Shown: positions 351 to 45,995, numbered from the stretch's first letter. The stretch: 45,995 bases of DNA from Patescibacteria group bacterium (GCA_028865095.1 JAGWLA010000005.1:1-45995), one strand, 5' to 3'. Numbers and translations: made by a program. Notes: generated by a model not told the origin, from the sequence alone.

Positions 351-565
351 GCTTGTGTGATCGGGTTTGATATCGTGGTGACCGTCCGTAGCCCGAAAAT
401 TTCTGGCGGCGCGGGCCTTCCTTGGGCTTTATTATAGCATCCCTATTAAAAAACCGAACAGAAGTTCGTCCGCAGCTGGGGATTCAAAGAGCGCTGATCG
501 GCGTCTTTTTTTGCCGCGCCAGCGTTCCCGATCGTCCGAACCATGTCGATGGCTGTTTCTTGCTG

Positions 566-652
566 CGGAGAGGAAGGGATTCGAACCCTTGATGCCCTTT
601 CGGACATACGTCCTTTCCAGGGACGCCCATTCGACCGCTCTGGCACCTCTCC
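566..652 (-). tRNA. tRNA-Ser (anticodon GGA), CCA not encoded
   Basis: Minus strand reads GGAGAGG...CCTCTCC-G acceptor stem, anticodon arm CGTCC-CTGGAAA-GGACG, long variable arm (ATGTCCGAAAGGGCAT) and T-loop GGTTCGAATCC. Confidence 0.97.
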
Positions 653-748
653 ACGACGGGCCCGCCCAACCGAGGCGCAGGCCCACAGACCGAATGCCAG
701 TGATTTGTACCACAAAACCGGGCGTTTTGCACCCGGAAAGCGCGAGCG

Positions 749-1435
749 CTACTTGGCGGGAGCCGCTTGGACCTCCGATTCGCCGGTCGGCAGCGTGATG
801 AGCGCGAACGATTGGACCATGTTCGTGAAGGCGGCGTCGGCCGTGCTCTTGATGGCTTTGTTGTTGTTCTGCGCCTGCGTCAGGTTAGACCCGGTCAAGC
901 CTTTCGCCTCGGGCGAGAGGGCGATATAGGAGAACATGAACGAGTAGCAGATGCTGCCCTGCTGGAGCGAGTACATCCGGTTGAAATAGGACCGTCCTTG
1001 AACGTCGTTGGACATGGCGATCATGTTGAAGGAGAGCGACCCGACCTTGACGACGCCGCGATCGTCGACGGTGGTGACCGGCGGGAAGGAGCACTTGGCG
1101 GGGACGACGGCGACGTCGGCCTCGAGCTTGGCGACCGTCGATACCTGGGTCTGGTCGATGGGCATGATGAACTGGACGCCCGTGGTGGTCTCGTCCTTCT
1201 CCCACGAGCTCGGATACTGGACCGAGAAGCCCAGCTCGGCATTCTGGTATTGCGAAGACGAGCCGGACACTTTGGTCGTCTCGGAGACGGCTACGGACTG
1301 GGTGGTGCTGCCGGTCGCCTCGCCGAGGGCGGCGGGCGCGGGCGCCTTCGAAGCGCCGTTGCCGAACCAGATGATGGCGCCGATGACCAGGACAGCGGCG
1401 ATGACGATAGCGACGATCTTTGCGTTCTTATTCAT
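749..1435 (-). CDS. Membrane-anchored extracytoplasmic protein (PsbP-like), hypothetical
   Basis: N-terminal TM helix, Ser/Thr/Ala linker, YQNAELGFSVQYPSSW motif and two Cys. Confidence 0.65.
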   Translation of the reverse strand: MNKNAKIVAIVIAAVLVIGAIIWFGNGASKAPAPAALGEATGSTTQSVAVSETTKVSGSSSQYQNAELGFSVQYPSSWEKDETTTGVQFIMPIDQTQVSTVAKLEADVAVVPAKCSFPPVTTVDDRGVVKVGSLSFNMIAMSNDVQGRSYFNRMYSLQQGSICYSFMFSYIALSPEAKGLTGSNLTQAQNNNKAIKSTADAAFTNMVQSFALITLPTGESEVQAAPAK

Positions 1436-1513
1436 TGCGGATGAAGATATTACGTTGTAACGGGTGCATTATAGCACTCGCCGCGCATCGCGCCAGGCCT
1501 TGAGGCGGCGGCT

Positions 1514-2260
1514 CTACGGCGAGAGCGCCTTGAAGCTCTGCACCATGGCCCCAAGGATATTATAGATCGACGCCATATCCGAGGCATGCTGGGCGTCATA
1601 GCGCTGGATGAGGGATGCGTCGTCGACGTAGAAGCCCGCCCCGTTCGTCCCGTGATCGAAGAAGTCTATCCGATAGCAGACGCCGGCGCCGAGCGTGTCG
1701 TACGCCACCTCGGTATAGAGGTTGCCGGCGCCGACATCGGTGCCGACGGTCCGCGTGAACGGGAGGCTGCCCACCGAGAGCTGCTCCGCGGCCGGCTGCG
1801 CGCCCGTCACGGCGGGGCATGTCGAGGTCGCGAAGACGGTCACTCGCGCGTCGTCAAGGAGCGGCCAATGGAAGTAAGGGTTCTTCGGGAATGCGAGCGT
1901 CAGGATCCCCTTTGACGAGCTCATGGTGAGGCCGGGCGGATATTCGATCGAGAACTTGTGGGACGGGTCCACATATATGAGCCACGAAGAGGTGTCCGCC
2001 GTCGAAGATGCCGGAAGGGGGATGGCCGCAGAGAAAGCCTGCGTCGCGGGCGAGACCGAGGAGGACGGGGAGGCGGACGGCGAGCTCCCGACGGCCGAGG
2101 GCGGCTGATAGAAATCGGGGGATGTCGACGAAGACGCCGGCGAAGGCGAGGGCGGAAGGGGCTGGCCGGCGCCATGCCCCGTCGCCATCGCGCCGATGCC
2201 GGCCGCGACCGCGATGACGATGATGATCAGCCCGAGCACGACAAGAGGTCTCGACGTCAT
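1514..2260 (-). CDS. Membrane-anchored extracytoplasmic protein (PsbP-like), paralog of 749..1435
   Basis: N-terminal TM, Pro/Ser linker, YVDPSHKFSIEYP motif and two Cys; TGATATAAT 6 nt before the ATG. Confidence 0.65.
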   Translation of the reverse strand: MTSRPLVVLGLIIIVIAVAAGIGAMATGHGAGQPLPPSPSPASSSTSPDFYQPPSAVGSSPSASPSSSVSPATQAFSAAIPLPASSTADTSSWLIYVDPSHKFSIEYPPGLTMSSSKGILTLAFPKNPYFHWPLLDDARVTVFATSTCPAVTGAQPAAEQLSVGSLPFTRTVGTDVGAGNLYTEVAYDTLGAGVCYRIDFFDHGTNGAGFYVDDASLIQRYDAQHASDMASIYNILGAMVQSFKALSP

Positions 2261-2311
2261 GGGCCTATTATATCAGATGCGGCCGCGCCGCGGGCGCCAG
2301 GCATCCGGACG

Positions 2312-3967
<1,656 letters not shown>

Positions 3968-4017
3968 TTAGTGTGTGGTTATCGTATAGTCGGCGATGAT
4001 AAACGGGCGGGGGCGGC

Positions 4018-4323
4018 TCATTTGAGGACCGCCAGTATCTCCGATTCGCGCACGATGTAGTAGTCTTCGTCGTCGATCCTGACCTTGTCGCCCCACTGGA
4101 AGAGGACGGAGTCGCCGGGCTTGACCGAGAGAGGGACGGCTTTCCCGTCTTCGATCCGGCCGGGGCCGACGGCGATCACCTCGCCCCGCTTGCCCCCTTT
4201 GTCTTCGCTCGCCGTGACGGGGATGATGATGCCGCCGGAGGTCTTCTTCTCGCCCGACGCCTCGTCCTCGCGGATGAGGACGCGGTCGGCGAGCGGCTTG
4301 ATCTTCTTGGAGATGTCTTTCAT
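4018..4323 (-). CDS. groS: Co-chaperonin GroES
   Basis: IKPLADRVLI, TSGGIIIP, GEVIAVGPG, IVRESEILAV; start reset to MKDISKK (CAT 4321-4323). Confidence 0.98.
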   Translation of the reverse strand: MKDISKKIKPLADRVLIREDEASGEKKTSGGIIIPVTASEDKGGKRGEVIAVGPGRIEDGKAVPLSVKPGDSVLFQWGDKVRIDDEDYYIVRESEILAVLK

Positions 4324-4394
4324 GTGGTTGGCTTGGGATGCGCGCGGATTATGCTGATAAGCGCGGGAAGCGCGGCGCGCGCAAGGTGATTGCA

Positions 4395-4422
4395 ATTATA
4401 TGCAGGAATCGGAAGCTGGCAA
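4395..4422 (-). promoter_or_regulatory. sigma70-type promoter of groES-groEL (TTGCCA-N16-TATAAT)
   Basis: Plus-strand attata at 4395-4400 and tggcaa at 4417-4422; no CIRCE element seen. Confidence 0.55.
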
Positions 4423-4504
4423 CTTGACAGCTCGCCAAAACAAGGACCCGTTGCGGCGGACCGCGGGAAGCGCGCCGCAGCGAAAGGCCCGGCCGGCGGA
4501 GCCA

Positions 4505-4533
4505 TTGACGGGACGGGCATCCGGTGCTAGCAT
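4505..4533 (+). promoter_or_regulatory. sigma70-type promoter of secG (TTGACG-N17-TAGCAT, extended TG)
   Basis: TTGACG at 4505-4510, TAGCAT at 4528-4533, ATG 8 nt downstream. Confidence 0.55.
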
Positions 4534-4541
4534 GGGAGCCA

Positions 4542-4763
4542 ATGAAGTCCCTCCTTCCTTACGTCCAGATCATCCTGTCCGTGCTCCTTGTCGCGGCCAT
4601 CGTCCTCCAAAGGACCGGCGCGCAAGTCGGGGGCGCTTTCGGCGGATCGGACAACTTCAGCTCCGCGTTCCACACCCGTCGCGGGCTCGAGAAGGGGCTC
4701 TTCATGACGACTATCGTCATCGGCATCCTGTTCGCCTTGTCGGCGCTGCTCAACCTCATATAA
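4542..4763 (+). CDS. secG: Preprotein translocase subunit SecG
   Basis: Two TM segments with LLVAAIVLQRTGAQVGGAFGGS...TRRGLEKGLFMTTI. Confidence 0.93.
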   Translation: MKSLLPYVQIILSVLLVAAIVLQRTGAQVGGAFGGSDNFSSAFHTRRGLEKGLFMTTIVIGILFALSALLNLI

Positions 4764-4822
4764 CAAGGGGCGCTTCCGGCCGATCGCGCCCTTGCGCGCC
4801 CACCCTACACTATTTACCATTC

Positions 4823-6562
4823 GTGACTGATACAACGGAAAAAGAGCTGCGCCTCGAACGGGGCTCTGCCATAATCGGATACATCCGGAGATTCTCGGCG
4901 ACCGAGAAGGCCGTCTTCGCCGTGTTCGTGATCCTCGCCGCCGCCACCGCCCTTCTCATGGCAGAAGCGGTCAACGACCATTTCATGAAAGAGGTGCCGG
5001 CCGCGGGCGGCGCTTTGCACGAAGGGCTCGTCGGCCTCCCTCACACCATCAACCCGGTCCTCGCCGTGACCGACGCGGACCGCGACCTGTCGGCGCTCGT
5101 CTACGCCGGCCTCACCAGATACGAGGACGGGAAGATCGAGCCGGGCCTCGCTTCGAGCTGGAAAGCCTCTTCCGACGGCCTGACCTACACGTTCGACCTG
5201 GCGCCGGGGCTGTCCTTCCAAGACGGGACGCCGCTCACGGCGGCGGACGTCGTCTTCACCGTCGGCAAGATCCAGGATCCCGCCTTGAAGAGCCCTCTGG
5301 CCGCCGACTGGGCCAACGTGACGGCTACCGCCACTTCGCCGACGGAAGTCGAATTCATCCTCAAGCAGCCGTACGGGTCGTTCCCCGCCAACGCGACCGT
5401 CGGCATACTCCCAAAGCACATCTGGGACAAAGTGAGCGACGACCAGTTCGTCTACAGCCAATACAATATCGACCCGATCGGAGCCGGTCCCTATAAGGTC
5501 ACGAGCTTGAGCCGCGATCAGGGAGGCATACCTACCGGATGCCGCCTCGACGCCTGGAACGGCTATGCCGGCGCGAAGCCCTATATCAAGAGCATATTCT
5601 TCGCGTTCTTCCCCGATCAGGACCACGCCCTCGCGGCGCTCGACAACGGGTCGATCGACAGCCTCCCGTCCGTGCCGGCAGACGCGGCGGCGAAGCTCGC
5701 GTCCAACGCCGGCGAGCCGTATCGGATCATCGCCGCCCCGCTTTCGCGCGTCTTCGGCGTCTTCTTCAACCAGAGCAACAACCCGGTCCTGGCCGACGAT
5801 TCCGTGCGCCAAGCCCTTTCCATGGCGGTGGACCGCCAGGCCATCGTCAGCTCTTCCCTTTACGGCTACGGCGTGCCCCTCGACGGGCCGTTGCCGCCGG
5901 GGATCTCCGCCGTCGGCCCTGTCAGCCAGCCCGACATCGCCGGGGCGCAAGCCCTTCTCGAGAAGGACGGCTGGCGCCCGGGCCCCGACGGCGTCATGGC
6001 GAAAGCCTCGAAGAGCGGCGGGAAGGCCGTCTCCCAGACCCTTTCGTTCACTTTGTATACCGCCGACGCTCCCGACCTGAAGCAGACGGCGCAGTCGTTG
6101 AGCGACGGCTGGGCGAAGATCGGCGCCTCGGTGAGCATCAAGGTCTTCGACCCGAGCGACCTGTACCAGACCGTCATCCGGACGCGCTCATACGACGCTC
6201 TGCTGTTCGGAGAGGCCGTGGGCCGCGATTCCGACGTCTACGCCTTCTGGCACTCGTCGGAGCGCAACTCCCCCGGCCTGAATATCGCCATGTACGCCAA
6301 CAGCAAGGCAGACAAGCTGCTCCAGAGCATACAGAGCGAATCGGACCCCGCGGCGAGAAGCGCAGACTACGCCGCTCTGGACAAGACCATAAAAGCGGAT
6401 TATCCTGCCATATTCCTGTACGCGCCTGATTTCATATACGCCCTCCCGAAGAGCGTCAAAGATGCGCGGATCGGCACGATGACCGCCCCGGCGGATCGAT
6501 GGGCATCGGAAGCCTCATGGTATATGGATACCGAGAGAGTATGGACGATATTCGACAGATAG
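4823..6562 (+). CDS. ABC transporter substrate-binding protein, family 5 (OppA/DppA-like), N-terminal membrane anchor
   Basis: LVYAGLT...PGLASSW..S.DGLTYTF.L...SFQDGTPLTAADVVFT, PIGAGPYKV and VRQALSMAVDR motifs. Start uncertain (GTG 4823 chosen). No permease gene adjacent. Confidence 0.88.
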   Translation: MTDTTEKELRLERGSAIIGYIRRFSATEKAVFAVFVILAAATALLMAEAVNDHFMKEVPAAGGALHEGLVGLPHTINPVLAVTDADRDLSALVYAGLTRYEDGKIEPGLASSWKASSDGLTYTFDLAPGLSFQDGTPLTAADVVFTVGKIQDPALKSPLAADWANVTATATSPTEVEFILKQPYGSFPANATVGILPKHIWDKVSDDQFVYSQYNIDPIGAGPYKVTSLSRDQGGIPTGCRLDAWNGYAGAKPYIKSIFFAFFPDQDHALAALDNGSIDSLPSVPADAAAKLASNAGEPYRIIAAPLSRVFGVFFNQSNNPVLADDSVRQALSMAVDRQAIVSSSLYGYGVPLDGPLPPGISAVGPVSQPDIAGAQALLEKDGWRPGPDGVMAKASKSGGKAVSQTLSFTLYTADAPDLKQTAQSLSDGWAKIGASVSIKVFDPSDLYQTVIRTRSYDALLFGEAVGRDSDVYAFWHSSERNSPGLNIAMYANSKADKLLQSIQSESDPAARSADYAALDKTIKADYPAIFLYAPDFIYALPKSVKDARIGTMTAPADRWASEASWYMDTERVWTIFDR

Positions 6563-12657: not shown

Positions 12658-13533
12658 TCAGCTATTATAGAATATATCGAGCTTGTCTTCCACGACCTTT
12701 TGCATGGCGAGCTTGGCCGGCTTCATGTACTTATACGGGGCGACCTGGTCCGGGTCCTCCGAAAGGGCTTTGACCAATCCTGAGCGGTATGCCAGCCGGA
12801 GCTCCGTATTGACGTGGACGAGCGCCACTCCGGCGTCGATGCACTTCCTGATGTCGTCGGCGGTATTGCCGGACGCTCCATGAAGGACCAAGGGGACGCC
12901 GACGGCGCCGGATATCTCTTTGACCCGCGTGGGATTGAGAGCGGGGTCGCCTCCCTTGACCACCCCGTGGATGTTGCCGACCGCGGGCGCCAGCATGTCC
13001 ACGCCCGTCTCGCGGACGAAGCGCATGGCGTCCTCCGGCTTGGTCATGTTCGCCTCCCCCACCACGGCCCCCGCCGGTATGGCGTCGAGGACCTTCGACG
13101 ACGTGCCGATGAAGCCGAGCTCGCCTTCGACCAGGATGTCCCGGCCGGCGGATGAGGCTGCGGCCTTGGCATACCGGACGCACTGCGCCGCGATCTTGAT
13201 GTTCTCGTCGAGCGGGAGCTGGGCGCCGTCGAATATGACGCTGTCGAACCCCGCGTCGATCGCTTCTTTGACCCTGTCGAACGAGTAGGTATGGTCGGCG
13301 TTCAGGTATATCTCCTGGCCGCGCCCTTCGCGGATGCTCTTGACCACGGCCGCGATCTCCCCGACGCCGAAATAATCCCTTTCGCCCTCCGACACGCCGA
13401 TGACCACTGGCACGCTCTTGGCATGAGCGGCGTCGGCGACGGCCCATACGCCGTCGATGGTCGATATATTGAAATGCCCTACTGCCCTTCCGGCGGATCG
13501 CGCGTCTTCGATGCACTGACGCAAAGTCTTCAT
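12658..13533 (-). CDS. fba: Class II fructose-bisphosphate aldolase family
   Basis: AVGHFNI, NADH (HxDH-like), GFDSVIFDG, VEGELG, GNIHG, PLVLHGASG and VNTELR motifs; start MKTLRQ. Confidence 0.92.
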   Translation of the reverse strand: MKTLRQCIEDARSAGRAVGHFNISTIDGVWAVADAAHAKSVPVVIGVSEGERDYFGVGEIAAVVKSIREGRGQEIYLNADHTYSFDRVKEAIDAGFDSVIFDGAQLPLDENIKIAAQCVRYAKAAASSAGRDILVEGELGFIGTSSKVLDAIPAGAVVGEANMTKPEDAMRFVRETGVDMLAPAVGNIHGVVKGGDPALNPTRVKEISGAVGVPLVLHGASGNTADDIRKCIDAGVALVHVNTELRLAYRSGLVKALSEDPDQVAPYKYMKPAKLAMQKVVEDKLDIFYNS

Positions 13534-13569
13534 TGGCCCATTGTAGCACAATGCTATATAATCGATGCA

Positions 13570-14619
13570 ATGCTCACGAAGAAGATCGATTTCCTGGCGA
13601 TAGGCGACACGGTGACGGACGCCTTCATCCGCCTGAAAGAAGCGCACGTCAACTGCAAGGTCAACACCGAGGACTGCGAGATCTGCCTTCCGTTCGGCGA
13701 CAAGATCCCGTTCGAATACGTGAAAGTGATCAAGGCCGTCGGCAACAGCGCCAACGCCGCGGTGGCGGCCGCCCGGCTCGGGCTCTCGACGGCGCTGGTC
13801 ACCGACCTGGGCGACGACCAGAACGGCAAGGACTGCCTGGCGGAGCTGCACAAGAACGGCGTGGCCACGACATACGTCACCAGCCATAAGGACAAGCTCA
13901 CCAACTATCACTTCGTCCTCTGGTACGAGGCCGATCGGACGATCCTGGTCAAGCATGTCGAATACGACTATCGTCTGCCCCGCTTCCCGGCCCCGAAATG
14001 GATATACCTCTCGTCGCTCGCCGACAACACGTTCCCGTACCATATGGCGCTCGCCGACTATCTCGAAGCCCACCCGGAGGTCAAGCTCGCGTTCCAGCCC
14101 GGGACGTTCCAGATGCAGCTCGGCACGGAGGAGCTCAAGCGCATATATGCGCGCACCGACCTCTTCGTGGTCAACGTCGAGGAAGCCCAGCGGATACTGA
14201 AGATCGGCCTCGACGCGCCCGGCGGCCGCGACCCGATCATGCTCATGAAGAAGCTGGCCGCCCTCGGCCCGAAGATGGTGGCGGTCACCGACAGCACGAA
14301 CGGCGCCTATTTCTACGACGGCGAGCGCTCCTATAGCGTCCCCATGTATCCCGATCCGCGGCCGGCATTCGACCGGACAGGCTGCGGGGACGCGTGGGCC
14401 TCGACATTCGTCGCGGCCATGGCCATGGGCAAGCCGCCGCTCGAGGCCCTCATATGGGCTCCCGTCAACCCGATGTCGGTAGCGCAGTTCGTCGGCGCCC
14501 AAGAAGGCCTGCTCGAGCGCGACCAGCTCGAATGGTGGCTCGAGCGCGCCCCGGCCGACTTCAAGGTCAAAGAGATCTTAGCAGCTCCTTCTTCAGCTCC
14601 GGGAACGTCCCCTCGATGA
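13570..14619 (+). CDS. PfkB/ribokinase-family carbohydrate kinase
   Basis: GNSANAAVAAARLG, NVEEA and DRTGCGDAW (PfkB signature); divergent from fba; 3' end overlaps tgt by 53 bp. Confidence 0.9.
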   Translation: MLTKKIDFLAIGDTVTDAFIRLKEAHVNCKVNTEDCEICLPFGDKIPFEYVKVIKAVGNSANAAVAAARLGLSTALVTDLGDDQNGKDCLAELHKNGVATTYVTSHKDKLTNYHFVLWYEADRTILVKHVEYDYRLPRFPAPKWIYLSSLADNTFPYHMALADYLEAHPEVKLAFQPGTFQMQLGTEELKRIYARTDLFVVNVEEAQRILKIGLDAPGGRDPIMLMKKLAALGPKMVAVTDSTNGAYFYDGERSYSVPMYPDPRPAFDRTGCGDAWASTFVAAMAMGKPPLEALIWAPVNPMSVAQFVGAQEGLLERDQLEWWLERAPADFKVKEILAAPSSAPGTSPR

Positions 14620-15805
14620 TCGCCCGGCGGAGGCGCGCCACGAGCCCGACCAGGAAATGGAGGTTGTGGATCGAGAGCAAGGTCGCGCCGAACATCTCCT
14701 TGGCGCGGAAGAGGTGCGATATATAGGCGCGGGAATAGCCCGCGCACGCGGGACATGCGCACGCCGGGTCGAGCGGCCCGAAGTCCGCGCCGAAGCGGGC
14801 GTTCAAGATGTTGACCCGGCCTTCGCCGGTGTAGGCGGTGCCGTTCCGGGCCATCCGGGTCGGGGCGACGCAATCGAAGGTGTCCGCCCCGTTCTCCACG
14901 CCGAGGACGAGGTCGGCCGGCTCGCCGATGCCCAAGAGGTGGCGGGGCTTCCCTTCCGGCAGCTCGTCGCACACCCAGCCGACGGCGGTGGCCATGTCGG
15001 CCTTCTCGAACGTCCCGCCGATGCCGAAGCCGTCGAACCTCGTCCCATCGGCCAGCTCCAATGACCCGACGGCCCGGGCGCTCTCCCGGCGCAGGTCCTC
15101 ATGCCTCCCTCCCTGGACGATGCCGAAGAGGGCTTGCTCGCCACCGAGCCGGCGGTGCTCCGCCAGGCAGCGCTCGGCCCAGGCCGTCGTGCGCCTGACC
15201 GCCCGGGCCTGCTCCGCATGCGGCGCGTCGGGCGGCGCGCATTCGTCGAGGACGAACATGATGTCCGCGCCGATGGCGTGCTGGATGGCGACCGATGTCT
15301 CCGGCGTGAAGCGGTGCGCCGACCCGTCGATGACCGACTTGAAGGCCACGCCGTCGTCGTCGACTTTCGCAAGCGCCTCTTCCCCGCCCCTCCCCGCCTC
15401 GCGGGCGGCTTTCGCGCCCCCGGCTCCGGCGCTGCCTGCACCCGCGGCCGCGGGGGCCGCGCCGAACTTGTTCGCCCGCCGCTCCTTCATGCCTCCTTGG
15501 AGGGAGAACGCCTGGAAGCCGCCCGAGTCGGTGAAGGTCGGGCCGTCCCATCCCATGAACTTCCCGAGGCCTCCCGCCTCCCGGACGATGTCCGGGCCCG
15601 GCTGGAGGTAGAGATGGTAGGTGTTGGCGAGGACGGCCTGCGCCCCGACGCCGCTCTTGACCTGCTCGGGCGAGAGGGCCTTGACCGTCGCCTTGGTGCC
15701 GACCGGGATGAAGGCCGGCGTCTCGATGGCGCCGTGCGGAGTGACGATGCGCCCGGCGCGGCCGCGGCCGTTCGGGAGGCGCTTCTCGACGTCGAATGTC
15801 AGCAT
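14567..15805 (-). CDS. tgt: tRNA-guanine transglycosylase
   Basis: TPAFIPVGTKATVK, ANTYHLYLQPG, FTDSGGFQ, LDEC, FGIVQGG, PRHLLGIG, DCVAPTRMARNG and CACPAC...HN zinc site. Confidence 0.96.
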   Translation of the reverse strand: MLTFDVEKRLPNGRGRAGRIVTPHGAIETPAFIPVGTKATVKALSPEQVKSGVGAQAVLANTYHLYLQPGPDIVREAGGLGKFMGWDGPTFTDSGGFQAFSLQGGMKERRANKFGAAPAAAGAGSAGAGGAKAAREAGRGGEEALAKVDDDGVAFKSVIDGSAHRFTPETSVAIQHAIGADIMFVLDECAPPDAPHAEQARAVRRTTAWAERCLAEHRRLGGEQALFGIVQGGRHEDLRRESARAVGSLELADGTRFDGFGIGGTFEKADMATAVGWVCDELPEGKPRHLLGIGEPADLVLGVENGADTFDCVAPTRMARNGTAYTGEGRVNILNARFGADFGPLDPACACPACAGYSRAYISHLFRAKEMFGATLLSIHNLHFLVGLVARLRRAIIEGTFPELKKELLRSL

Positions 15806-15865
15806 CGCTCTAGGATATGCGAAGCGGGCGCGGCAATCAAGGAGCGGTTCTGCTATAATGCGCCC

Positions 15866-16570
15866 ATGACGAACGGCGAAGACCGGCAGGACCCGCTCCC
15901 CCTCACCCGGAAGGATATCCACGAGCACGCCATCGAGGAGCACCTCGAGCGCATCAACCGCGAGTTCCGCCGCGGCTTCGAGTTCCTGGAGAAGTACCCT
16001 CGCTCGGTGAGCATATTCGGCTCGTCCATGGCCTCTCGGGACAGCGAGCACTACCGGAACGCGTACGAGCTCGCCAAGCGCATCGTCGCCGAGACGGGCT
16101 ATGCGGTCATCAGCGGCGGCGGCCCGGGGATCATGGAGGCCGCCAACAAGGGCGCTTTCGAGGCCGGCGGCCCGTCCATCGGACTGCGCATCAACCTGGT
16201 GCGCGAGCGCATCGCCAATCCCTACGAGACCGACGGGCTCGACTTCACTTATTTCTTCGCCCGGAAGACCATGCTCACCTTCGCCGCGGAGGCCTACATC
16301 TTCTGCCCCGGCGGCTTCGGGACGTTCGACGAGCTCTTCAGCATCCTCACCCTCATCCAGACGAACAAGATCCCGCGGGTGCCGATCCTGCTCTTCGGCG
16401 CAGGCTTCTGGGCGCCGATGAAGGGGTTCATCGAGAAAGTCATGTACGAGGGATATCATGCCATCGACCATCCGGACATGGGGCTGTTCGAGATCACGGA
16501 CTCGGCCGACCATATCGTCGAGACGATCAAGAGCGCCCCGACGTCCGACTGGTGGAGGAACATCAACTAG
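15866..16570 (+). CDS. LOG-family (TIGR00730) nucleotide monophosphate phosphoribohydrolase
   Basis: VSIFGSS, SGGGPGIMEAANKGA, YFFARK and PGGFGTFDE motifs. Confidence 0.92.
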   Translation: MTNGEDRQDPLPLTRKDIHEHAIEEHLERINREFRRGFEFLEKYPRSVSIFGSSMASRDSEHYRNAYELAKRIVAETGYAVISGGGPGIMEAANKGAFEAGGPSIGLRINLVRERIANPYETDGLDFTYFFARKTMLTFAAEAYIFCPGGFGTFDELFSILTLIQTNKIPRVPILLFGAGFWAPMKGFIEKVMYEGYHAIDHPDMGLFEITDSADHIVETIKSAPTSDWWRNIN

Positions 16571-16572
16571 CA

Positions 16573-16598
16573 GAAAGCCCGCCATATGGCGGGCTTTC
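16573..16598. terminator. Hairpin terminator between convergent LOG and RRM genes
   Basis: gaaagcccgcca-ta-tggcgggctttc perfect inverted repeat. Confidence 0.7.
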
Positions 16599-37669: not shown

Positions 37670-39559
37670 CTAATCGACTTTCAGCACCTTCTTCAGGACC
37701 TCCTCGGGGACCTCTCTCTGCTGCGGGTCGGCTTTCGGCACCGGCTTCAGGCCGGCGGGCGCCGGGGTCGGGGCCGGCGCCGGCGAAGACGCCGCCGGCA
37801 TCGGCTTCGCGGCCGCATTCTTGGCCAGGATCGACTGCAAGGCGCTCTTCAGCTGGCTGACGTTCTCGGGAGTGGGGATCTTCGGATCGGGCCTCGAAGG
37901 AGGCTTGGCCGCCGGCGCCGCGCCCGAAGGCTTCGGGGCGAGAGCGGAGAGGGACACGGGCTTCGGCGCCTGGGCTTGCTTCAAGACGTCGGCAAGGGCG
38001 GCCTTGAACGGCTGATGCACGGGCTTATCGGCCGGCGCCGGAGCGCGAGGAGCGGACGGCGCGGCTTTCGGCGGCATCGCTGGGATAGGCGCGGCGGCAG
38101 GGGCCGCTTTCGGGAGCGCCGTCGGCGCGGCAGGGCGCGCGACAGGGGCCGTCTGCGGCTTGGCGGGAGCGACAGCGCTCGCAGCCGGCACAGAAGGGGC
38201 GGCGGAGGCAGCGGCCGCGGCGGGCGCGATGGCCGCAGGAGACGCCGCTTTCGGCGCCGGCCTCGGGACGGGAGTCGGCTCGTGGAACTTGACGATCTCT
38301 GCTTCGACGTCGGCGCGCGGCTTGGCGAACTGCTCGCGCGACGCGGCGATGATCTCCTTGACGTACGACGTGTCAGGATGCGGGATGGGCAGCATGGTCA
38401 CCGCCGAGAACGGCGCCGACGACAGGCCGTCGATCATGAGCTTCAGATATATCTGGGCGAAGCCGAGATTGACCAGGTCTTCGGTGGTGAATTGGGGCAT
38501 GAACTCCTTCTCGAGGATCTCGGCGTCGCTCGCCCCCACCCGGAAGACGATCATGGTGCCGACGTTGCCGAAGACGGCCGGCCTGACGATCTCGTCCATC
38601 TGCTCGACGTATTGATGGGCGATGGTCAGGTTGAGCTTGTACTTGCGGGCCTCCGAGAGGATGTCTGCGAACGAGGCGTTGGCGAAGTTCTGGAACTCGT
38701 CCACATATAGGTAGAAGTTCGGCATGATCTTCATGACCCGGTCGGGGATGTCGGCGCGCGACATGGCCGCCAGATAGATCTTGGTGACCAGGAGGCCGCC
38801 GAGGAGCTTCATGTTCTCGTCGCCGATCTTGCCCTTGGACAGGTTGATGATCATGATCTTCCGCTTGTCCATGGCTTCGCGGAAATCGAACGACGACGTG
38901 GGCTGGCCGATCATGTTGCGGATGAGAGGGTTGGCGGTGAATTGGCCGACCTTGTTCTGGATGGCGGGCACGGCTTCCGCGGCCTGGCGCTCGGTGTAAT
39001 TGGCGAATTCCTTGGTCCAGAAAGCCTTCACGGAAGGGTCTTTGACGTGCGAGACGATCTCATTCCGGTACGCCTTGTCGGACAGCATCCGGTTCACGCC
39101 GAGAAGGGTCGAGCCGGGCGCTTCGAGCAGGGCGAGGAGGGTGTTGGTCAGGATATATTCCATGCGGGCCGACCAGGCGTCGACCCAGATCTTCTTGAAC
39201 GTGCTCATCAGGCCCGACACGACCAGGTGGCGCTTGTCGGGATCGACGCTCTCGAGGACGTTGAACGAGATCGGATATTCGGTGTCGAACGGGGCGATAT
39301 ATATGACGTCGCGGATGCGCTTCTCCGGGACATATTCCATGAGAAGGTCGGCGGTCTTGCCGTGAGGGTCGATGAAGCACATCCCTTCCCCGTTCTGGAT
39401 GTCCTGGACGGCCATGTTCTCCAGGAGCGTCGACTTTCCCATGCCCGTCTTCCCGAGCACATAGACGTGGCGGGTGCGGTCTTTGGCTTTTATGCCGAAG
39501 CGGACCCGCTTGTTGCGGGCGTCGGTCTCGGCGAAATATGTGATGCGGTTCTCGTCCAT
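37670..39559 (-). CDS. VirD4/TrwB/DUF87-like P-loop ATPase with long Pro/Ala-rich tail
   Basis: HVYVLGKTGMGKST, IDPHG, LYVDEFQNF, LSEARKY, AHQY..Q and AVFGNVGT motifs. Confidence 0.88.
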   Translation of the reverse strand: MDENRITYFAETDARNKRVRFGIKAKDRTRHVYVLGKTGMGKSTLLENMAVQDIQNGEGMCFIDPHGKTADLLMEYVPEKRIRDVIYIAPFDTEYPISFNVLESVDPDKRHLVVSGLMSTFKKIWVDAWSARMEYILTNTLLALLEAPGSTLLGVNRMLSDKAYRNEIVSHVKDPSVKAFWTKEFANYTERQAAEAVPAIQNKVGQFTANPLIRNMIGQPTSSFDFREAMDKRKIMIINLSKGKIGDENMKLLGGLLVTKIYLAAMSRADIPDRVMKIMPNFYLYVDEFQNFANASFADILSEARKYKLNLTIAHQYVEQMDEIVRPAVFGNVGTMIVFRVGASDAEILEKEFMPQFTTEDLVNLGFAQIYLKLMIDGLSSAPFSAVTMLPIPHPDTSYVKEIIAASREQFAKPRADVEAEIVKFHEPTPVPRPAPKAASPAAIAPAAAAASAAPSVPAASAVAPAKPQTAPVARPAAPTALPKAAPAAAPIPAMPPKAAPSAPRAPAPADKPVHQPFKAALADVLKQAQAPKPVSLSALAPKPSGAAPAAKPPSRPDPKIPTPENVSQLKSALQSILAKNAAAKPMPAASSPAPAPTPAPAGLKPVPKADPQQREVPEEVLKKVLKVD

Positions 39560-41481: not shown

Positions 41482-41549
41482 AGGGATCGGGGGGTCCCCG
41501 ATGCCGACACCTTACCATATCGGGAGCTATTGTGATAATGTATGCCCAT

Positions 41550-42791
41550 ATGAAGCCGTCCTCCGGAACGATCGTCTATGTCAGCCGCGAGATAGAGCGG
41601 GCTCTCGGCATGGAGCCCTGCGAAGGCTATCGCATCGTCTCCAACCGCTCGCCGTACGGCGAGACGGTCAAAGAGCGCTTCCCGGGCTTCGTCGCCCTCG
41701 TCGACGCCCCCGACGGCGCGGCCCTCGGCACGGCGGAGCTCATCCGCCATCCGGAGACGGAGAAGCTCGTCGGCGAGCTCGAGCGCTCCGGCACCCAGCC
41801 CTCTATCCTCGTATTCAAGAACACCGCCCGCATCGAGCCGCTCATCCGCGAGAAAGGATGGCGCCTCCTCAACCCGCCCGCGGCCGCCTCCGAGAGGATC
41901 GAGAATAAGGTCTCCCAAGTCCAATGGCTCGGCGAGCTCGAGCGGCGCCTGCCGCCGCACCGGCTCCAGTTCATGAAGAGCGTCGAGTGGCGGGGCGAGC
42001 CCTTCATCGTCCAATGGGCCCATGGGCATACCGGCGCCGGCACCATCCTCGTCGATTCCGAAGAGGCCCTCCGGCCGCTCAAGGAGCGCTTCCCGGAGCG
42101 CCGGGCGCGGATCGCCCGCTATATCGACGGCCCCTCGTTCACGGTGAACGTGGTCGTCTCGCCGGAGTCGATCGAGGCCGCCGGCATCAGCTACCAGATC
42201 ACCGGCCTCGCGCCTTTCACCGACAGCCCGTTCACCACCGTCGGCAACGATTGGGGCGTGGTCGGGTCGCTCCTCACCGGCGCCGACGTCGATGCCGTGC
42301 GCACGCTGGTCGGCGACCTCGGAGCGAAGATGCGGGCGGAATCGTGGCGCGGCCTCTTCGGCATCGACCTCATCAAGGACCGCTCGTCCGGCGAGCTCCG
42401 CCTCATCGAGGTCAACGCGCGCCAGCCCGCGTCGGCCACGTTCGAGTCGTCTCTGCAAGAAGCTGAGCGGGCCAAGGGCGCCGACGGCCTCACCACCTTC
42501 GAAGCGCATATCGCCGCCCTCTCCGGGCAGCCGCTCGAGAAGCCCGTCATCGAGATCGCGGCCGGCGCCCAGATCGTCCAGCGGGTCACGGCGACGGTAT
42601 CGTCCGTCCCCGCCGGCGCCGCTGCGGCCCTGGAGAAAGAGGGCTTCACCGTCGTCTCCTACGGCAATTCGAAGGAGCATGAAGACCTTCTCCGGGTCCA
42701 GAGCGCCGGCAGCCTCATGGCCGGGCACGGAGCCCTTAACGATGCCGGCCGGATGATAGCGGGCATAGTCTCCCCCGGCCCGCGCGCCTGA
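41550..42791 (+). CDS. ATP-grasp domain protein (putative amino-acid/peptide ligase)
   Basis: IENK, PFIVQ...GHTGAGT loop, RYIDG, GNDW, GLFGIDLI and LIEVNAR (ExN) motifs; start uncertain. Confidence 0.8.
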   Translation: MKPSSGTIVYVSREIERALGMEPCEGYRIVSNRSPYGETVKERFPGFVALVDAPDGAALGTAELIRHPETEKLVGELERSGTQPSILVFKNTARIEPLIREKGWRLLNPPAAASERIENKVSQVQWLGELERRLPPHRLQFMKSVEWRGEPFIVQWAHGHTGAGTILVDSEEALRPLKERFPERRARIARYIDGPSFTVNVVVSPESIEAAGISYQITGLAPFTDSPFTTVGNDWGVVGSLLTGADVDAVRTLVGDLGAKMRAESWRGLFGIDLIKDRSSGELRLIEVNARQPASATFESSLQEAERAKGADGLTTFEAHIAALSGQPLEKPVIEIAAGAQIVQRVTATVSSVPAGAAAALEKEGFTVVSYGNSKEHEDLLRVQSAGSLMAGHGALNDAGRMIAGIVSPGPRA

Positions 42792-42815
42792 CCTCATCGC
42801 ATCGCCTCCCCTCCT

Positions 42816-43592
42816 ATGAACACCAAGACCCTCACCCCCCGCGCCCTGTCCGTCATCGACCAATATCTCCACTTCAAGGTCGGCGGCGCCGTCTGCTCCG
42901 TCCCTTATTTCAATAACAAGACCGTCCGGGCACGGGCGGCGCTCCCCGTCTTTGTCGGCAAAGGGAGCCCTAAAGAGATATTCGACGAGATGAGCGCTTT
43001 TCTGGTGAAGAGCCATGTCTCACCTGACAGCGTGGCCGATGATGCGTTGAAGAAGCTGCTGGTGGACAACTCCATCGGCATAGACTGCTCGGCCTTCGCG
43101 TACTATGTATTGGATGCGGAGAGCAGAGAAGCCGGCAAAAAACCGCTCGACCGGCGCTTGTCGCCTATACGGGCGTCGGGTCTGCTCGGCCGGATCGCAT
43201 TCAAGCTGAACCCTGCAAAGAACATCGACGTAGCGACGTTCGCCAACGACAAGAATAGCGTCGTCATCCGGCCCGAGGATTCCCAGCCTGGAGACGTCAT
43301 CACGATGATGAAAGATGACGGCCACGACAGCCGCAACCACATCCTCGTCATCCATCAGGTCGAATACCAGAATTTCGCGGCCACGAAGATCCATTACTCG
43401 CACGCCATCGCGTACCCGGAAGACGGCCTCTACGGCAGCGGCATCCGGCAAGGGACGATCGAGATCGCCGACCCCGGCAAGCCGCTGCTCGACCAGGCCT
43501 GGACCGAGGACGGGAAGACGGGCGCCGACAGCCGCATCGCGGCGCGCGCCCGCGAGTCGACCACGGAGCTGCGCAGATTGTCCGCGTCATAG
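42816..43592 (+). CDS. NlpC/P60-like (papain-fold) cysteine amidase/peptidase
   Basis: VPY, GIDCSAFAYYVL, QPGDVI, NHILVI and IHYSHA give a Cys-His-His arrangement; no signal peptide. Confidence 0.72.
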   Translation: MNTKTLTPRALSVIDQYLHFKVGGAVCSVPYFNNKTVRARAALPVFVGKGSPKEIFDEMSAFLVKSHVSPDSVADDALKKLLVDNSIGIDCSAFAYYVLDAESREAGKKPLDRRLSPIRASGLLGRIAFKLNPAKNIDVATFANDKNSVVIRPEDSQPGDVITMMKDDGHDSRNHILVIHQVEYQNFAATKIHYSHAIAYPEDGLYGSGIRQGTIEIADPGKPLLDQAWTEDGKTGADSRIAARARESTTELRRLSAS

Positions 43593-43664
43593 GAGCGCGG
43601 GAACGACCGGCAGAAGCGCCTCTGCGCTTCGACACAGAGCGGCGAAAGTGATATTCTTGGCACG

Positions 43665-44792
43665 ATGATCACCATCCTTCAGGGAACGGCCGACTTGGCC
43701 TACATACTCGGCTTCGCCCTCATCGGCGCGGCCGCGGCTTTCCTCTGGGCGCCCCTGCTGTCCCGCCTCCTCTATCGGTATAAGGTCGTCAAAGGGCCCA
43801 AGACCGAGCTCGTCGCCCTCGGCTCGCACGCTTACAAAGCCACGACTCCCGTCATGGGAGGCTTGCTCGTCATCCTGACGGTCGCCGCGGTCACGTACCT
43901 CTTCGACTGGTCGCGCTCGTTCACCTGGGTGCCGGTCGGCGTCATGCTCATATCCGCCCTCCTCGGCGCCCTCGACGACGTCATGAACATATTCGGCGCC
44001 GAGCGCCGCTCGCGCAAGCTCAGCCATGTCCTGCGGCTCATCCGCGTCCACCGCGACCTGAAGATGCGGATCTGGTACGCCCTCACGCTCCCGTGGACCG
44101 CTTTCAAGCGCCTCTCCGTCTGGTTCGGGTCGCGCACCAGCCGCGGCATCCTCGTCCACGAGAAGCTCATCCTCCAATTCATCGCCGGCAGTATCACCGC
44201 CTGGTGGATATTCGACAAGCTCGGCCCCGCCTGGCACTTCGTCTATTTCCCCTTCGGCTGGGACTGGGACGCCGGCTGGCTGATCGTGCCGATCATCATC
44301 CTGACGGTCATGTTCACCGCCAACGCCGTCAACATCGCCGACGGCATGGACGGCCTGGCGGGCGGCATGCTCATCATCACTTTCAGCGCCCTGACCCTCC
44401 TGTCATGGATCAACGGCTTCGGGGAGGTCGCCATCATGAACGCCGCCACGGTCGGAGCCTTGGTGGCCTATACGTATTACAACATCAAGCCTGCCCGCTT
44501 CATGATGGGCGACGTGGGATCATTGGGCCTCGGCGCCCTTCTGGCGGTCAACGCCATGGCCATCGGCGAGATAGGCTCCCTCTTCTTCCTGGGCTTCATG
44601 TTCTACGTCGAAGCCCTGTCCGTCATCGCCCAAGTCGGCTCGCGCTACCTCTTCGGCCGCAAGCTCCTGGCCATGGCCCCTCTCCATCACCACTTCGAGG
44701 TCAAAGGCTGGAGCGAGGAGAAGACCGTCATGCGCTTCTGGGTCATCCATTTCTTCTTCGTGGTCTTCGGTTTCTGGCTGGCGCTGCATTAG
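43665..44792 (+). CDS. mraY: Phospho-N-acetylmuramoyl-pentapeptide transferase (MraY family) with an internal insertion
   Basis: TPVMGG, GALDD, NAVNIADGMDGL, PARFMMGDVGS and MAPLHHHFE.KGWSE motifs. Confidence 0.88.
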   Translation: MITILQGTADLAYILGFALIGAAAAFLWAPLLSRLLYRYKVVKGPKTELVALGSHAYKATTPVMGGLLVILTVAAVTYLFDWSRSFTWVPVGVMLISALLGALDDVMNIFGAERRSRKLSHVLRLIRVHRDLKMRIWYALTLPWTAFKRLSVWFGSRTSRGILVHEKLILQFIAGSITAWWIFDKLGPAWHFVYFPFGWDWDAGWLIVPIIILTVMFTANAVNIADGMDGLAGGMLIITFSALTLLSWINGFGEVAIMNAATVGALVAYTYYNIKPARFMMGDVGSLGLGALLAVNAMAIGEIGSLFFLGFMFYVEALSVIAQVGSRYLFGRKLLAMAPLHHHFEVKGWSEEKTVMRFWVIHFFFVVFGFWLALH

Positions 44793-44794
44793 CC

Positions 44795-45523
44795 ATGGAT
44801 GAGAAGCCGGCGAAAAGCTACCTGCACTGGGACGAGAAGGTTGTAACAGACTTCTCCGACGGAGCCGTCGCGGCCCTGTACGAGCGCGGCTATGTCTTCA
44901 CCCGCAAAGGCAGAGGCGTCATGCAGCAGACCCGCTCCGTGCGCGTGGACCTCTCGAAGCTCGAGCCCTCCAGCGAGAACCGGCGCATCCTGAAGAAGAT
45001 GGCCGGCATATCGCTGGCGCTCGAAGGGCTCCCGTTGAAGGGATACGACTATACCCTCGGCCGCGACGCCAAATATTTCTATGACATGAAGTTCGGCCCC
45101 GGCGTCATGAGCGCCCAGAAAGTGAAAGAGATGCTGACCGACCCGGCGAAGAGCAATTTCAACGCTTTCCTGACCTATTCGCAGGAAGGGGCCGGGCTCG
45201 GCTACGCCATCTGCCGCCAAGGCGCCGGCCTGCTCCATTATTCCTATCCGTTCTATCATATCGACCGGGCGCCGAAGGACATGGGCCTCGGCATGATGAC
45301 CATGGCGATCATGTGGGCAAAGGACGCCGGCAAGCGGCACGCCTACCTCGGCTCCCTCCAGCGCCCAGGCGACGCCTACAAGCTGCAATTCGCCGGCCTC
45401 GAATGGTTCGACGGCGAGAGGTGGCGCAGCGACACGGAAGGAGCGAAGCAGGCGCTGGCAGGCCTGCCGGGGACAAAAAAAGCCGCCGAGGGGCGGCCTG
45501 ATACGGACGGCGAGCCTGCGTGA
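44795..45523 (+). CDS. Ate1/Bpt-like aminoacyl-tRNA-dependent transferase (GNAT fold)
   Basis: RSVRVDL....PSSENRRIL (ATE_N-like), then YSYPFY......DMGLGMM..AI.WAK..G..HAYLG......YKLQF.GLEWFDG..W (ATE_C-like). Confidence 0.75.
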   Translation: MDEKPAKSYLHWDEKVVTDFSDGAVAALYERGYVFTRKGRGVMQQTRSVRVDLSKLEPSSENRRILKKMAGISLALEGLPLKGYDYTLGRDAKYFYDMKFGPGVMSAQKVKEMLTDPAKSNFNAFLTYSQEGAGLGYAICRQGAGLLHYSYPFYHIDRAPKDMGLGMMTMAIMWAKDAGKRHAYLGSLQRPGDAYKLQFAGLEWFDGERWRSDTEGAKQALAGLPGTKKAAEGRPDTDGEPA

Positions 45524-45529
45524 CGGCGG

Positions 45530-45757
45530 TCAGGCGGCTATCGGATCCCCCGCCGCGCGGTGGAAAACCTTGATCTCCGCTCCTTCGACGATGGTCGCGT
45601 CGGGAGGGACTTCGAGCTCGTTCATGACGAACCTCCAGGACCCGTGGCCCTGAGAGGGATACCAGAGCTCGGGAAGGACCTGCTCGATCCTCCGTCCGAC
45701 CCAAGCACCCGCGTCCACGGCTTTGGCTGCATGCATGATGCGAATGGTAGCGTTCAT
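45530..45757 (-). CDS. Small hypothetical protein, possible MoaD/ThiS-like beta-grasp fold
   Basis: FVMNELEVPPDATIVEGAEIKVFHRAAG pattern; AAGGA upstream of the ATG. Confidence 0.45.
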   Translation of the reverse strand: MNATIRIMHAAKAVDAGAWVGRRIEQVLPELWYPSQGHGSWRFVMNELEVPPDATIVEGAEIKVFHRAAGDPIAA

Positions 45758-45995
45758 AGCGTATTCCTTTGTCAGCGTTCGCGAGCGTCAGCTTCGCTGC
45801 GCCCAGTATAGCTCCGCCTGGCGAAAAGTCACGCGAGCGCGCACGAGTCGCACAACCTCCTTTGATAGACATATCACTGTAGGAGCACTATTTTGATAGG
45901 TTCTCTGGCAATTGGACTAGCTCAAATCCTAGAATCGTTTTGTAATTTTTTAGCTTCCTTCCGTTCATAACTACACCGCCATTAAAGCATGCTCT

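Follow-up and report, generated by a model that had tools for sequence, protein, structure and literature searches.

The synthesis of peptidoglycan precursors, a major antibiotic target, is among the best-charted bacterial pathways. Patescibacteria represent a large, mostly uncultivated share of bacterial diversity, and their wall chemistry is almost unknown. Enzymes of the FemX type carry a catalytic lysine with an aromatic residue before it. In K. lactis Ate1 the counterpart of FemX Lys305 is Lys304, the K304A variant being inactive, and the pocket for acidic N-termini is housed in the ATE_N domain (available part of PMC9351520). The ATP-grasp enzymes LysX and ArgX, in turn, attach the substrate amino acid to the Glu at the C-terminus of the carrier protein LysW (available part of PMC12998189). 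Here we analyze a 45,995-nucleotide (nt) stretch of DNA from a Patescibacteria group bacterium (GCA_028865095.1, JAGWLA010000005.1:1-45995; hereafter the window), in which an ATP-grasp ligase, an NlpC/P60-like cysteine hydrolase, MraY and an Ate-like protein are encoded side by side. The four genes belong to a seven-gene module, so far found only in Patescibacteria, whose other members lie outside the window.

A seven-gene module around the only mraY and murC-type genes

The four window genes are co-oriented on the plus strand. They encode the ATP-grasp ligase (41550-42791; 413 amino acids (aa); PF02655; alternative start GTG at 41532), the NlpC/P60-like cysteine hydrolase (42816-43592; 258 aa; assigned by fold and invariant Cys and His residues), MraY (43665-44792; 375 aa; PF00953) and an Ate/Bpt-fold aminoacyl-tRNA transferase-like protein without ATE_N (44795-45523; 242 aa; assigned by fold and an invariant Tyr-Lys pair), referred to below as Ate-like. 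Open reading frame (ORF) calling returned the same coordinates and the same intergenic gaps (24, 72 and 2 nt) as the initial annotation of this DNA. That annotation had proposed a wall-precursor system made of these four genes. A linked and conserved set tied to peptidoglycan-precursor synthesis is indeed present, but three of its members, coding for a MurC-like ligase, a small carrier and a PALP-type pyridoxal phosphate (PLP) enzyme, lie beyond the window edge and had been missed.

The window is the entire contig C13 of a genome (G000) of 757,716 bases in 14 contigs with a completeness rating of 99.86%. The 149 nt at its end recur without a mismatch at the start of contig C5. In relatives, whose records carry the labels Patescibacteria, Paceibacterota or Taylorbacteria, the gene after the Ate-like one codes for a Mur ligase of ~480 aa and is followed by a PALP enzyme; the orthologues map to C5:740-2149 and C5:2410-3294. 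The downstream genes of the relatives from the same genus have their orthologues within C5:740-3294. C5 accordingly carries the MurC-like (MurC/Mpl-like) ligase (740-2149, plus strand), the LysW-like zinc-ribbon carrier of 59 aa (2161-2337, minus strand; PF21344) between the ligase and PALP genes, the PALP-type enzyme (2404-3294, plus strand) and, on the other strand immediately beyond the PALP gene, MurD (3311-4864, minus strand). The lack of murD, murF and ftsW neighbours that had been pointed out initially is thus true of the window, but not of the region across the contig join, where both the MurC-like ligase and MurD are found. As a side observation, most contig ends of G000 share exactly 149 nt with another contig, or 110 nt in the case of one pair, so the 14 contigs could largely be ordered, C13 followed by C5 being one example.

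Within the window's genus, the Ate-like gene directly follows mraY in 18 of 19 loci, the 19th having a 2.8 kb insert. Sixteen of the 19 have the ATP-grasp and NlpC-like genes, and two of the remaining loci begin at mraY. This synteny is only suggestive, since it extends to rsmI and a VirD4-like gene. We regard as decisive the distribution of the module in a co-occurrence sample of 301 genomes of the phylum (G000 and an even sample of 300 others). Here the Ate-like profile matched 14 of the 300 other genomes (15/301 with G000), all of them outside the window's class and belonging to five families. The NlpC-like profile matched 17 of the 301 genomes, including G000 and all but one of the 14 other Ate-positive genomes. 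Three gene orders could be distinguished. The order ATPgrasp-NlpC-MraY-Ate-MurC-PALP is shared by the window's genus and six loci of two families (f47 and f120), while seven loci of another two families (f61 and f84), at 24-38% identity, have the order Ate-MurC-NlpC-MraY-PALP-ATPgrasp. The single locus of family f70 has only the MurC-Ate pair, beside mraY-ftsW-murG. Of 34 loci, 23 contain all six genes detectable by tblastn, and contig ends truncate most of the remaining 11. No more than ~2.1 kb separate the Ate-like gene from the MurC-like one in 33 of the 34, across all three orders; the 34th locus stops at a contig edge. The synteny survey suggested in the initial annotation has thus revealed a linkage that survives rearrangement in other classes of the phylum.

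Could the gene order be accidental or purely historical, with no shared function behind it? Within one genus, order could be plain inheritance. However, the same gene set recurs after rearrangement at the low identity given above, and the presence or absence of module genes go together: in G011 (94% complete) the Ate-like, NlpC-like and ATP-grasp genes are all missing at once. Moreover, the MurC-like and NlpC-like proteins are fused into a single ORF in two genomes (695 aa in locus L082 and 697 aa in L085), with the NlpC part at the MurC C-terminus. We regard an accidental association as hardly credible.

The exceptions to the full set are informative about its organization. G096 and G033 have the Ate-like and MurC pair, but no match for the carrier, the ATP-grasp or the NlpC-like protein. 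Conversely, G093 has no Ate-like match, yet codes for MurC, an unrelated small gene, the carrier and PALP, ATP-grasp, NlpC-like, MraY, FtsW, MurG and GltX. In G014 the ATP-grasp/NlpC pair is found together on another contig. The module is therefore composed of two separable sub-modules: (A) the Ate-like and MurC-like proteins, and (B) the carrier, ATP-grasp, PALP and NlpC/P60-like proteins. Since each occurs without the other, the single linear pathway of cutting, re-ligation, lipid loading and aminoacylation put forward initially is unlikely. Two details of the G093 locus (L091, contig C8) may be added. The 118-aa ORF between MurC and the carrier was considered as an Ate-like remnant and rejected (hhalign probability 0.2); it is a 23S rRNA IVS-type protein. 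A glutamyl/glutaminyl-tRNA synthetase gene (529-2058, minus strand) stands right after murG, at the end of this module-bearing wall cluster.

A whole-genome search of G000 found mraY at one locus only. The window copy is thus not a dedicated duplicate of a second mraY in a dcw cluster, a possibility that had been left standing. It matches PF00953 (Glycos_transf_4) above the cut-off (E 1.8e-24, 87 bits) and TIGR00445 below it (170 bits against 192), the latter match being split in two stretches. G000 has exactly four Mur-ligase loci: the MurC-like ligase, MurD, MurE (C10) and MurF, the last on C14 within a remnant mraZ-rsmH-x-ftsI-murF cluster. The MurC-like ligase is the only murC candidate among them. 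With no other copies found in the genome search, the cluster contains the housekeeping mraY and the sole murC candidate. The module, conserved across classes with rearrangement, thus has the only mraY and the only murC-type ligase of the genome at its core.

Two peculiarities of the sequences were observed in passing. About 45 extra residues (roughly residues 111-156) separate the two TIGR00445 stretches of MraY and could be a lineage-specific cytoplasmic loop. Among the genus relatives, mraY of locus L045 and the ATP-grasp gene of L047 each match in two pieces, which could reflect frameshifts or assembly errors.

The Ate-like protein

The match of the window protein to ATE_C (E 0.048, 14.7 bits) is below the Pfam cut-off of 25 bits, a score that 16 of 23 scanned relatives do reach; several of these relatives also match Acetyltransf_6. 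With the NCBIfam arginyltransferase models the E-value is 6.4e-9, but the score (35.6 bits) stays below the cut-off of 170. ATE_N is matched by none of the 24 family proteins (the window protein and the 23 relatives), and the FemAB profile (PF02388) has no match to the window protein at E <= 1. Searches returned 1132 relatives at E <= 0.001, which are named 'arginyltransferase' by JGI and 'GNAT' by NCBI, and 253 matches among 50%-identity representatives; of these, the 150 listed are no longer than 314 aa.

The structural comparison was clearer. The AlphaFold model of the protein (pLDDT 93.4) gave 112 Foldseek matches at E <= 0.001. Human ATE1 was the best (8tzv, E 7e-9, query TM-score 0.65), followed by yeast ATE1, FemX, A-PGS/MprF, LFTR and Sba18; among the matches listed, all are aminoacyl-tRNA users. 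The predicted model thus confirms the fold of an aminoacyl-tRNA transferase, in line with the initial description of the protein as an Ate1/Bpt-like tRNA-dependent transferase. The pair Y195-K196 is invariant in all 72 Ate-like sequences aligned. Together with a YLG motif it lines up with the YK and YLG of yeast ATE1, in an alignment that is weak overall (E 0.28). Based on the fold and the invariant Tyr-Lys pair, combined with the missing ATE_N, the protein looks like an active aminoacyl-tRNA transferase with a different acceptor site.

It might be argued that the Ate-like protein modifies proteins, as in N-degron pathways, or acts on the carrier, that it has no role in the wall, and that its adjacency to mraY and murC reflects the operon economy of a tiny genome. 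The closest structural relatives, the ATE1 enzymes, do act on protein N-termini (available part of PMC9351520), and the synteny in the genus extends to the unrelated rsmI and VirD4-like genes, so that proximity proves little. On the other hand, the domain with the pocket for acidic N-termini (available part of PMC9351520) is missing from all 24 proteins, and the neighbourhood of the MurC-like gene is retained at 33 of 34 loci in three gene orders. Neither can the carrier be an obligate substrate, as the Ate-like gene occurs without it in G096 and G033. Overall, we find a protein- or carrier-directed enzyme without a role in the wall very unlikely.

The carrier and its candidate partners

A motif scan located the carrier ORF in 46 of 55 loci. 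Small ORFs upstream of PALP on the same strand proved to be junk, the real small gene being on the opposite strand. In an alignment of 36 carriers the four Cys, one Gly and the C-terminal Lys are invariant, the tails reading ...DEGK or ...(Q/E)K. All 36 match PF21344 (Zn_ribbon_LysW) at E <= 0.01 (best E 1.2e-13), the G000 copy scoring 24.3 bits against a cut-off of 27. When the carrier profile was compared with the PDB, LysW came out on top (3wwl, E 1.7e-7; 5k2m_E, E 6e-6; 3vpb_E, E 0.006). A separate observation concerns locus L086 (G258:C13), where a carrier homologue upstream of PALP has lost all four zinc-binding Cys and has kept the tail ...DYLLVEK.

The ATP-grasp protein matches PF02655 above the cut-off (28.7 against 23.2 bits). 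Those of its 1114 relatives whose source records name a taxon are from Patescibacteria-type lineages. A single-sequence search of the PDB produced nothing relevant, and a profile search only weak generic ATP-grasp matches, with LysX not among them. In the Protein Atlas the look-alike clusters are named generic ATP-grasp or 'putative biotin carboxylase', with no substrate indicated; the nearest clusters are Patescibacteria-type, while more distant ones occur in Actinomycetota and Pseudomonadota. For the PALP enzyme, the same resource lists the clusters 'PLP-dependent enzyme' and 'threonine synthase family', with 'putative threonine ammonia-lyase' in the second structural row, again with no substrate indicated. 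A complex prediction for the ATP-grasp protein and the carrier, made with separate alignments, scored 0.01 against a mark of 0.32, which speaks neither for nor against binding.

The NlpC/P60 identity of the hydrolase is weak by Pfam (NLPC_P60, 13.7 bits against a gathering cut-off of 23). Foldseek matches of its predicted model (pLDDT 88.8) were likewise weak, with nothing at E <= 0.001. VIA-align, however, assigned the model a papain-like NlpC/P60 fold: MepS was matched at Z 10.9 (root-mean-square deviation 3.3 over 127 residues), and nearly all of the 22 chains at Z >= 8 are titled NlpC/P60 or D,L-endopeptidase. Cys91, His175 and His196, which by the motifs of the family we take to be the catalytic triad, are invariant in 42 of 42 sequences. 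The initial assignment to NlpC/P60 is thereby backed by fold and residues. By eye, the N-terminus has no hydrophobic signal-like segment. Judging from the fusions with MurC described above, the protein is probably cytoplasmic.

Mur ligases, salvage and the supply of D-glutamate

The initial annotation suggested that scavenged muropeptides might be cut and re-ligated. In its extended form, this explanation would have the NlpC-like protein cut imported stem peptides, the ATP-grasp enzyme re-ligate them, and the MurC-like protein act as an Mpl-type ligase that puts the ready peptide on UDP-MurNAc before MraY. The scores of the MurC-like ligase are nearly equal for murC (230 bits) and mpl (220 bits), both being below the cut-offs, and gamma-D-glutamyl-diamino-acid endopeptidases are among the structures similar to the NlpC-like model (2evr, Z 9.9; 3m1u, Z 8.1). 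Genomes as small as this one, just 758 kb, are expected to scavenge. Nevertheless, being the sole murC candidate in a 99.9% complete genome, the ligase must also perform the de novo step, and MurD, MurE, MurF and Ddl are all present. Salvage would also leave the LysW-like carrier, the PALP enzyme and the aminoacyl-tRNA transferase unexplained. We therefore consider it improbable as the function of the module. Because a carrier is present, the ATP-grasp/NlpC pair reads better as loader and releaser of an amino acid bound to the carrier.

Another candidate function is the supply of D-Glu (or another D-amino acid) for MurD, whereby the PLP enzyme would epimerise an L-amino acid attached to the carrier Lys, and an NlpC/P60-type hydrolase with D-specificity would release it. 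Neither MurI (PF01177) nor an Aminotran_4 protein (PF01063, D-amino-acid aminotransferase) was found in G000, although MurD is present, and murD directly follows the PALP gene. Characterized NlpC/P60 enzymes cut after gamma-D-Glu, which also fits. PF01177 matches 126 of the 301 sampled genomes, a tally that includes the unpublished G194: one of the 14 other Ate-positive genomes as against 125 of the 286 without an Ate-like gene. Yet 161 of these 286 module-less genomes have no PF01177 match either and the genomes are interrelated, so the anticorrelation is weak, and we rejected the absence of MurI as an explanation of the module. D-Glu supply would also leave the Ate-like enzyme without a role. 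On this evidence it is similarly improbable, if anything slightly more so than salvage.

A further feature of the Mur ligases was observed in MurE (C10:5848-7152, minus strand), which carries DEDPY. Enzymes that add meso-diaminopimelic acid (mDAP) have the motif DNPR at the corresponding place. Going by this motif, there are hints that position 3 of the stem peptide is perhaps a diamino acid other than mDAP.

Proposed function of the module

Taken together, the evidence makes it likely that the module is a functional system for tailoring wall precursors. For the particular two-part mechanism that follows, a carrier set combined with transfer by an Ate-fold enzyme, we would put the chances at about even. 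Sub-module B would be a LysW-type carrier pathway in which an amino-acid unit destined for the stem peptide is made or tailored. The ATP-grasp enzyme, as the candidate loader, would ligate an amino acid at or beside the invariant C-terminal Lys of the carrier, and the PLP enzyme would modify, or add to, the tethered unit. The NlpC/P60-like hydrolase, as the candidate releaser, would then free the product from the carrier, close to the Mur ligases by which it is used. Within sub-module A, aminoacyl-tRNA would donate the amino acid that the Ate-fold enzyme attaches to a free amine of a muramyl-peptide precursor, a Fem-like step performed by a different family, and MraY would then put the altered precursor on the lipid.

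A number of observations weigh against this mechanism. All 36 carriers end in Lys and not in the Glu that serves as the attachment residue in LysW; the LysW chemistry is thus not directly transferable and must differ. The carrier gene is on the strand opposite to its neighbours. The profile search of the PDB showed no specific sequence relation of the ATP-grasp protein to LysX, and the PALP enzyme is only weakly similar to threonine synthase and serine dehydratase (E 4e-7). Canonical Ddl, alanine racemase (Alr), MurD, MurE and MurF are all encoded in G000, so that, except for the source of D-Glu, there is no visibly missing step for the module to fill. Finally, the Ate-like gene was detected in just 14 of the 300 other genomes, which makes the module a lineage speciality.

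The carrier mechanism may also be given a more specific form, in which the wall peptide contains a residue built on a protein carrier. The PLP enzyme would extend either the C-terminal Lys of the carrier itself or an amino acid joined to it, giving a non-standard, possibly diamino-dicarboxylic, block. The MurC-associated NlpC/P60-like enzyme would cut it off, the ATP-grasp enzyme would recharge the carrier, and the ATE-fold enzyme would add a tRNA-borne residue. In this detail the proposal is speculative and, on balance, rather unlikely. If true, peptidoglycan synthesis would include a step that depends on a carrier protein and an enzyme of the ATE family, each the first of its kind there.

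Surroundings of the cluster

Two promoter-like sites, both with TG in front, were found by consensus match only: TTACCA-16-GATAAT (41512-41539, plus strand) upstream of the ATP-grasp gene and TCGACA-17-TATTCT (43629-43657, plus strand) upstream of mraY. A consensus scan found no plus-strand terminator-like site inside the cluster. There are no tRNA genes near it, the sole tRNA gene in the window being tRNA-Ser at 565-652. In G000, the Ate-like gene is separated from the remaining module by a lower-GC insert of ~1.06 kb (window 45524-45995, continuing as C5:150-739), which is missing at the same spot in most relatives. The GC content falls to 0.35-0.40 there, and small ORFs of 75, 116 and 57 aa are present on the minus strand; a Pfam scan of two of the three gave no match.

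Elsewhere in the window, a 629-aa VirD4/TraG/HerA-like coupling ATPase (37670-39559, minus strand) has a long Ala/Pro-rich C-terminal half; across the genus, the N-terminus shows 87-92% identity. The longest ORF for a class II fructose-bisphosphate aldolase (12658-14502, minus strand) has 614 aa, with the domain starting at residue 326, and that for TGT (14567-16585, minus strand) has 672 aa, with the best stretch from residue 405. The long unmatched N-terminal parts of both could be over-extended calls in GC-rich DNA or genuine extra domains.

Significance and comparison with known systems

A literature search, which covered papers but not their supplementary files, found none describing this cluster. 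If the proposed mechanism is true, three novelties would follow: the Fem role would be filled by a new enzyme family, a LysW-type carrier would serve a pathway other than amino-acid biosynthesis or natural-product synthesis, and a Mur ligase would be directly connected in function with a cytoplasmic NlpC/P60 hydrolase. Since the seven module proteins are small and, except for MraY, soluble, in vitro tests of these predictions require no culture of the organism.

The resemblance to known systems is partial in every case. Like FemX, FemABX and MurM (PF02388), which transfer residues from aminoacyl-tRNA onto peptidoglycan precursors, the Ate-like protein has a GNAT-type fold (FemX, 1xe4, matches its model at E 1.1e-6) and a Lys after an aromatic residue, which is catalytic in FemX-type enzymes (available part of PMC9351520). 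In contrast to these enzymes, it has no FemAB match, is shorter (~240 aa as against ~335 aa in FemX) and has a fold nearer to ATE1; no FemAB gene was found in G000 either. We know of no Fem-type gene locked beside murC in the way the Ate-like gene is. Among Bpt and ATE1 enzymes, ATE1 is the best structural match of the protein and the YLG and YK motifs align with those of yeast ATE1; the ATE_C cut-off is reached by 16 of 23 scanned relatives, though not by the window protein itself. It differs in the missing ATE_N, in the arginyltransferase score far below the cut-off, and in a genomic context of cell-wall synthesis instead of proteolysis.

The carrier set recalls the LysW and ArgW pathways (LysW, LysX, tailoring enzymes and the hydrolase LysK), as a small LysW-family zinc ribbon is accompanied by an ATP-grasp ligase, a tailoring enzyme and a hydrolase, and the logic would be that of LysX loading LysW (available part of PMC12998189). 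However, the tail of the carrier ends in Lys instead of Glu, the ATP-grasp ligase showed no specific sequence relation to LysX in the profile search of the PDB, tailoring would fall to a PLP enzyme of the PALP type, the hydrolase is a cysteine enzyme of the NlpC/P60 type, and the set sits in a murC-mraY operon. In glutathionylspermidine synthetase/amidase (Gsp), a papain-like Cys amidase and an ATP-dependent amide ligase break and make one and the same bond. The structural similarity of its amidase to the NlpC-like model is weak (Z 6.6 for 3a30 and 6.0 for 2io7), and Gsp works on small thiols and polyamines without a carrier protein. Finally, murein-peptide recycling of the Mpl/YkfC type also places a MurC-family ligase beside a cytoplasmic NlpC/P60-type peptidase, and the mpl score of the module ligase is near its murC score. 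Here, however, the ligase is the sole murC candidate and the cluster adds a carrier, a PLP enzyme and an aminoacyl-tRNA transferase; to our knowledge, known murein recycling pathways include none of the three. The cluster thus departs from each family that it resembles in at least one defining feature.

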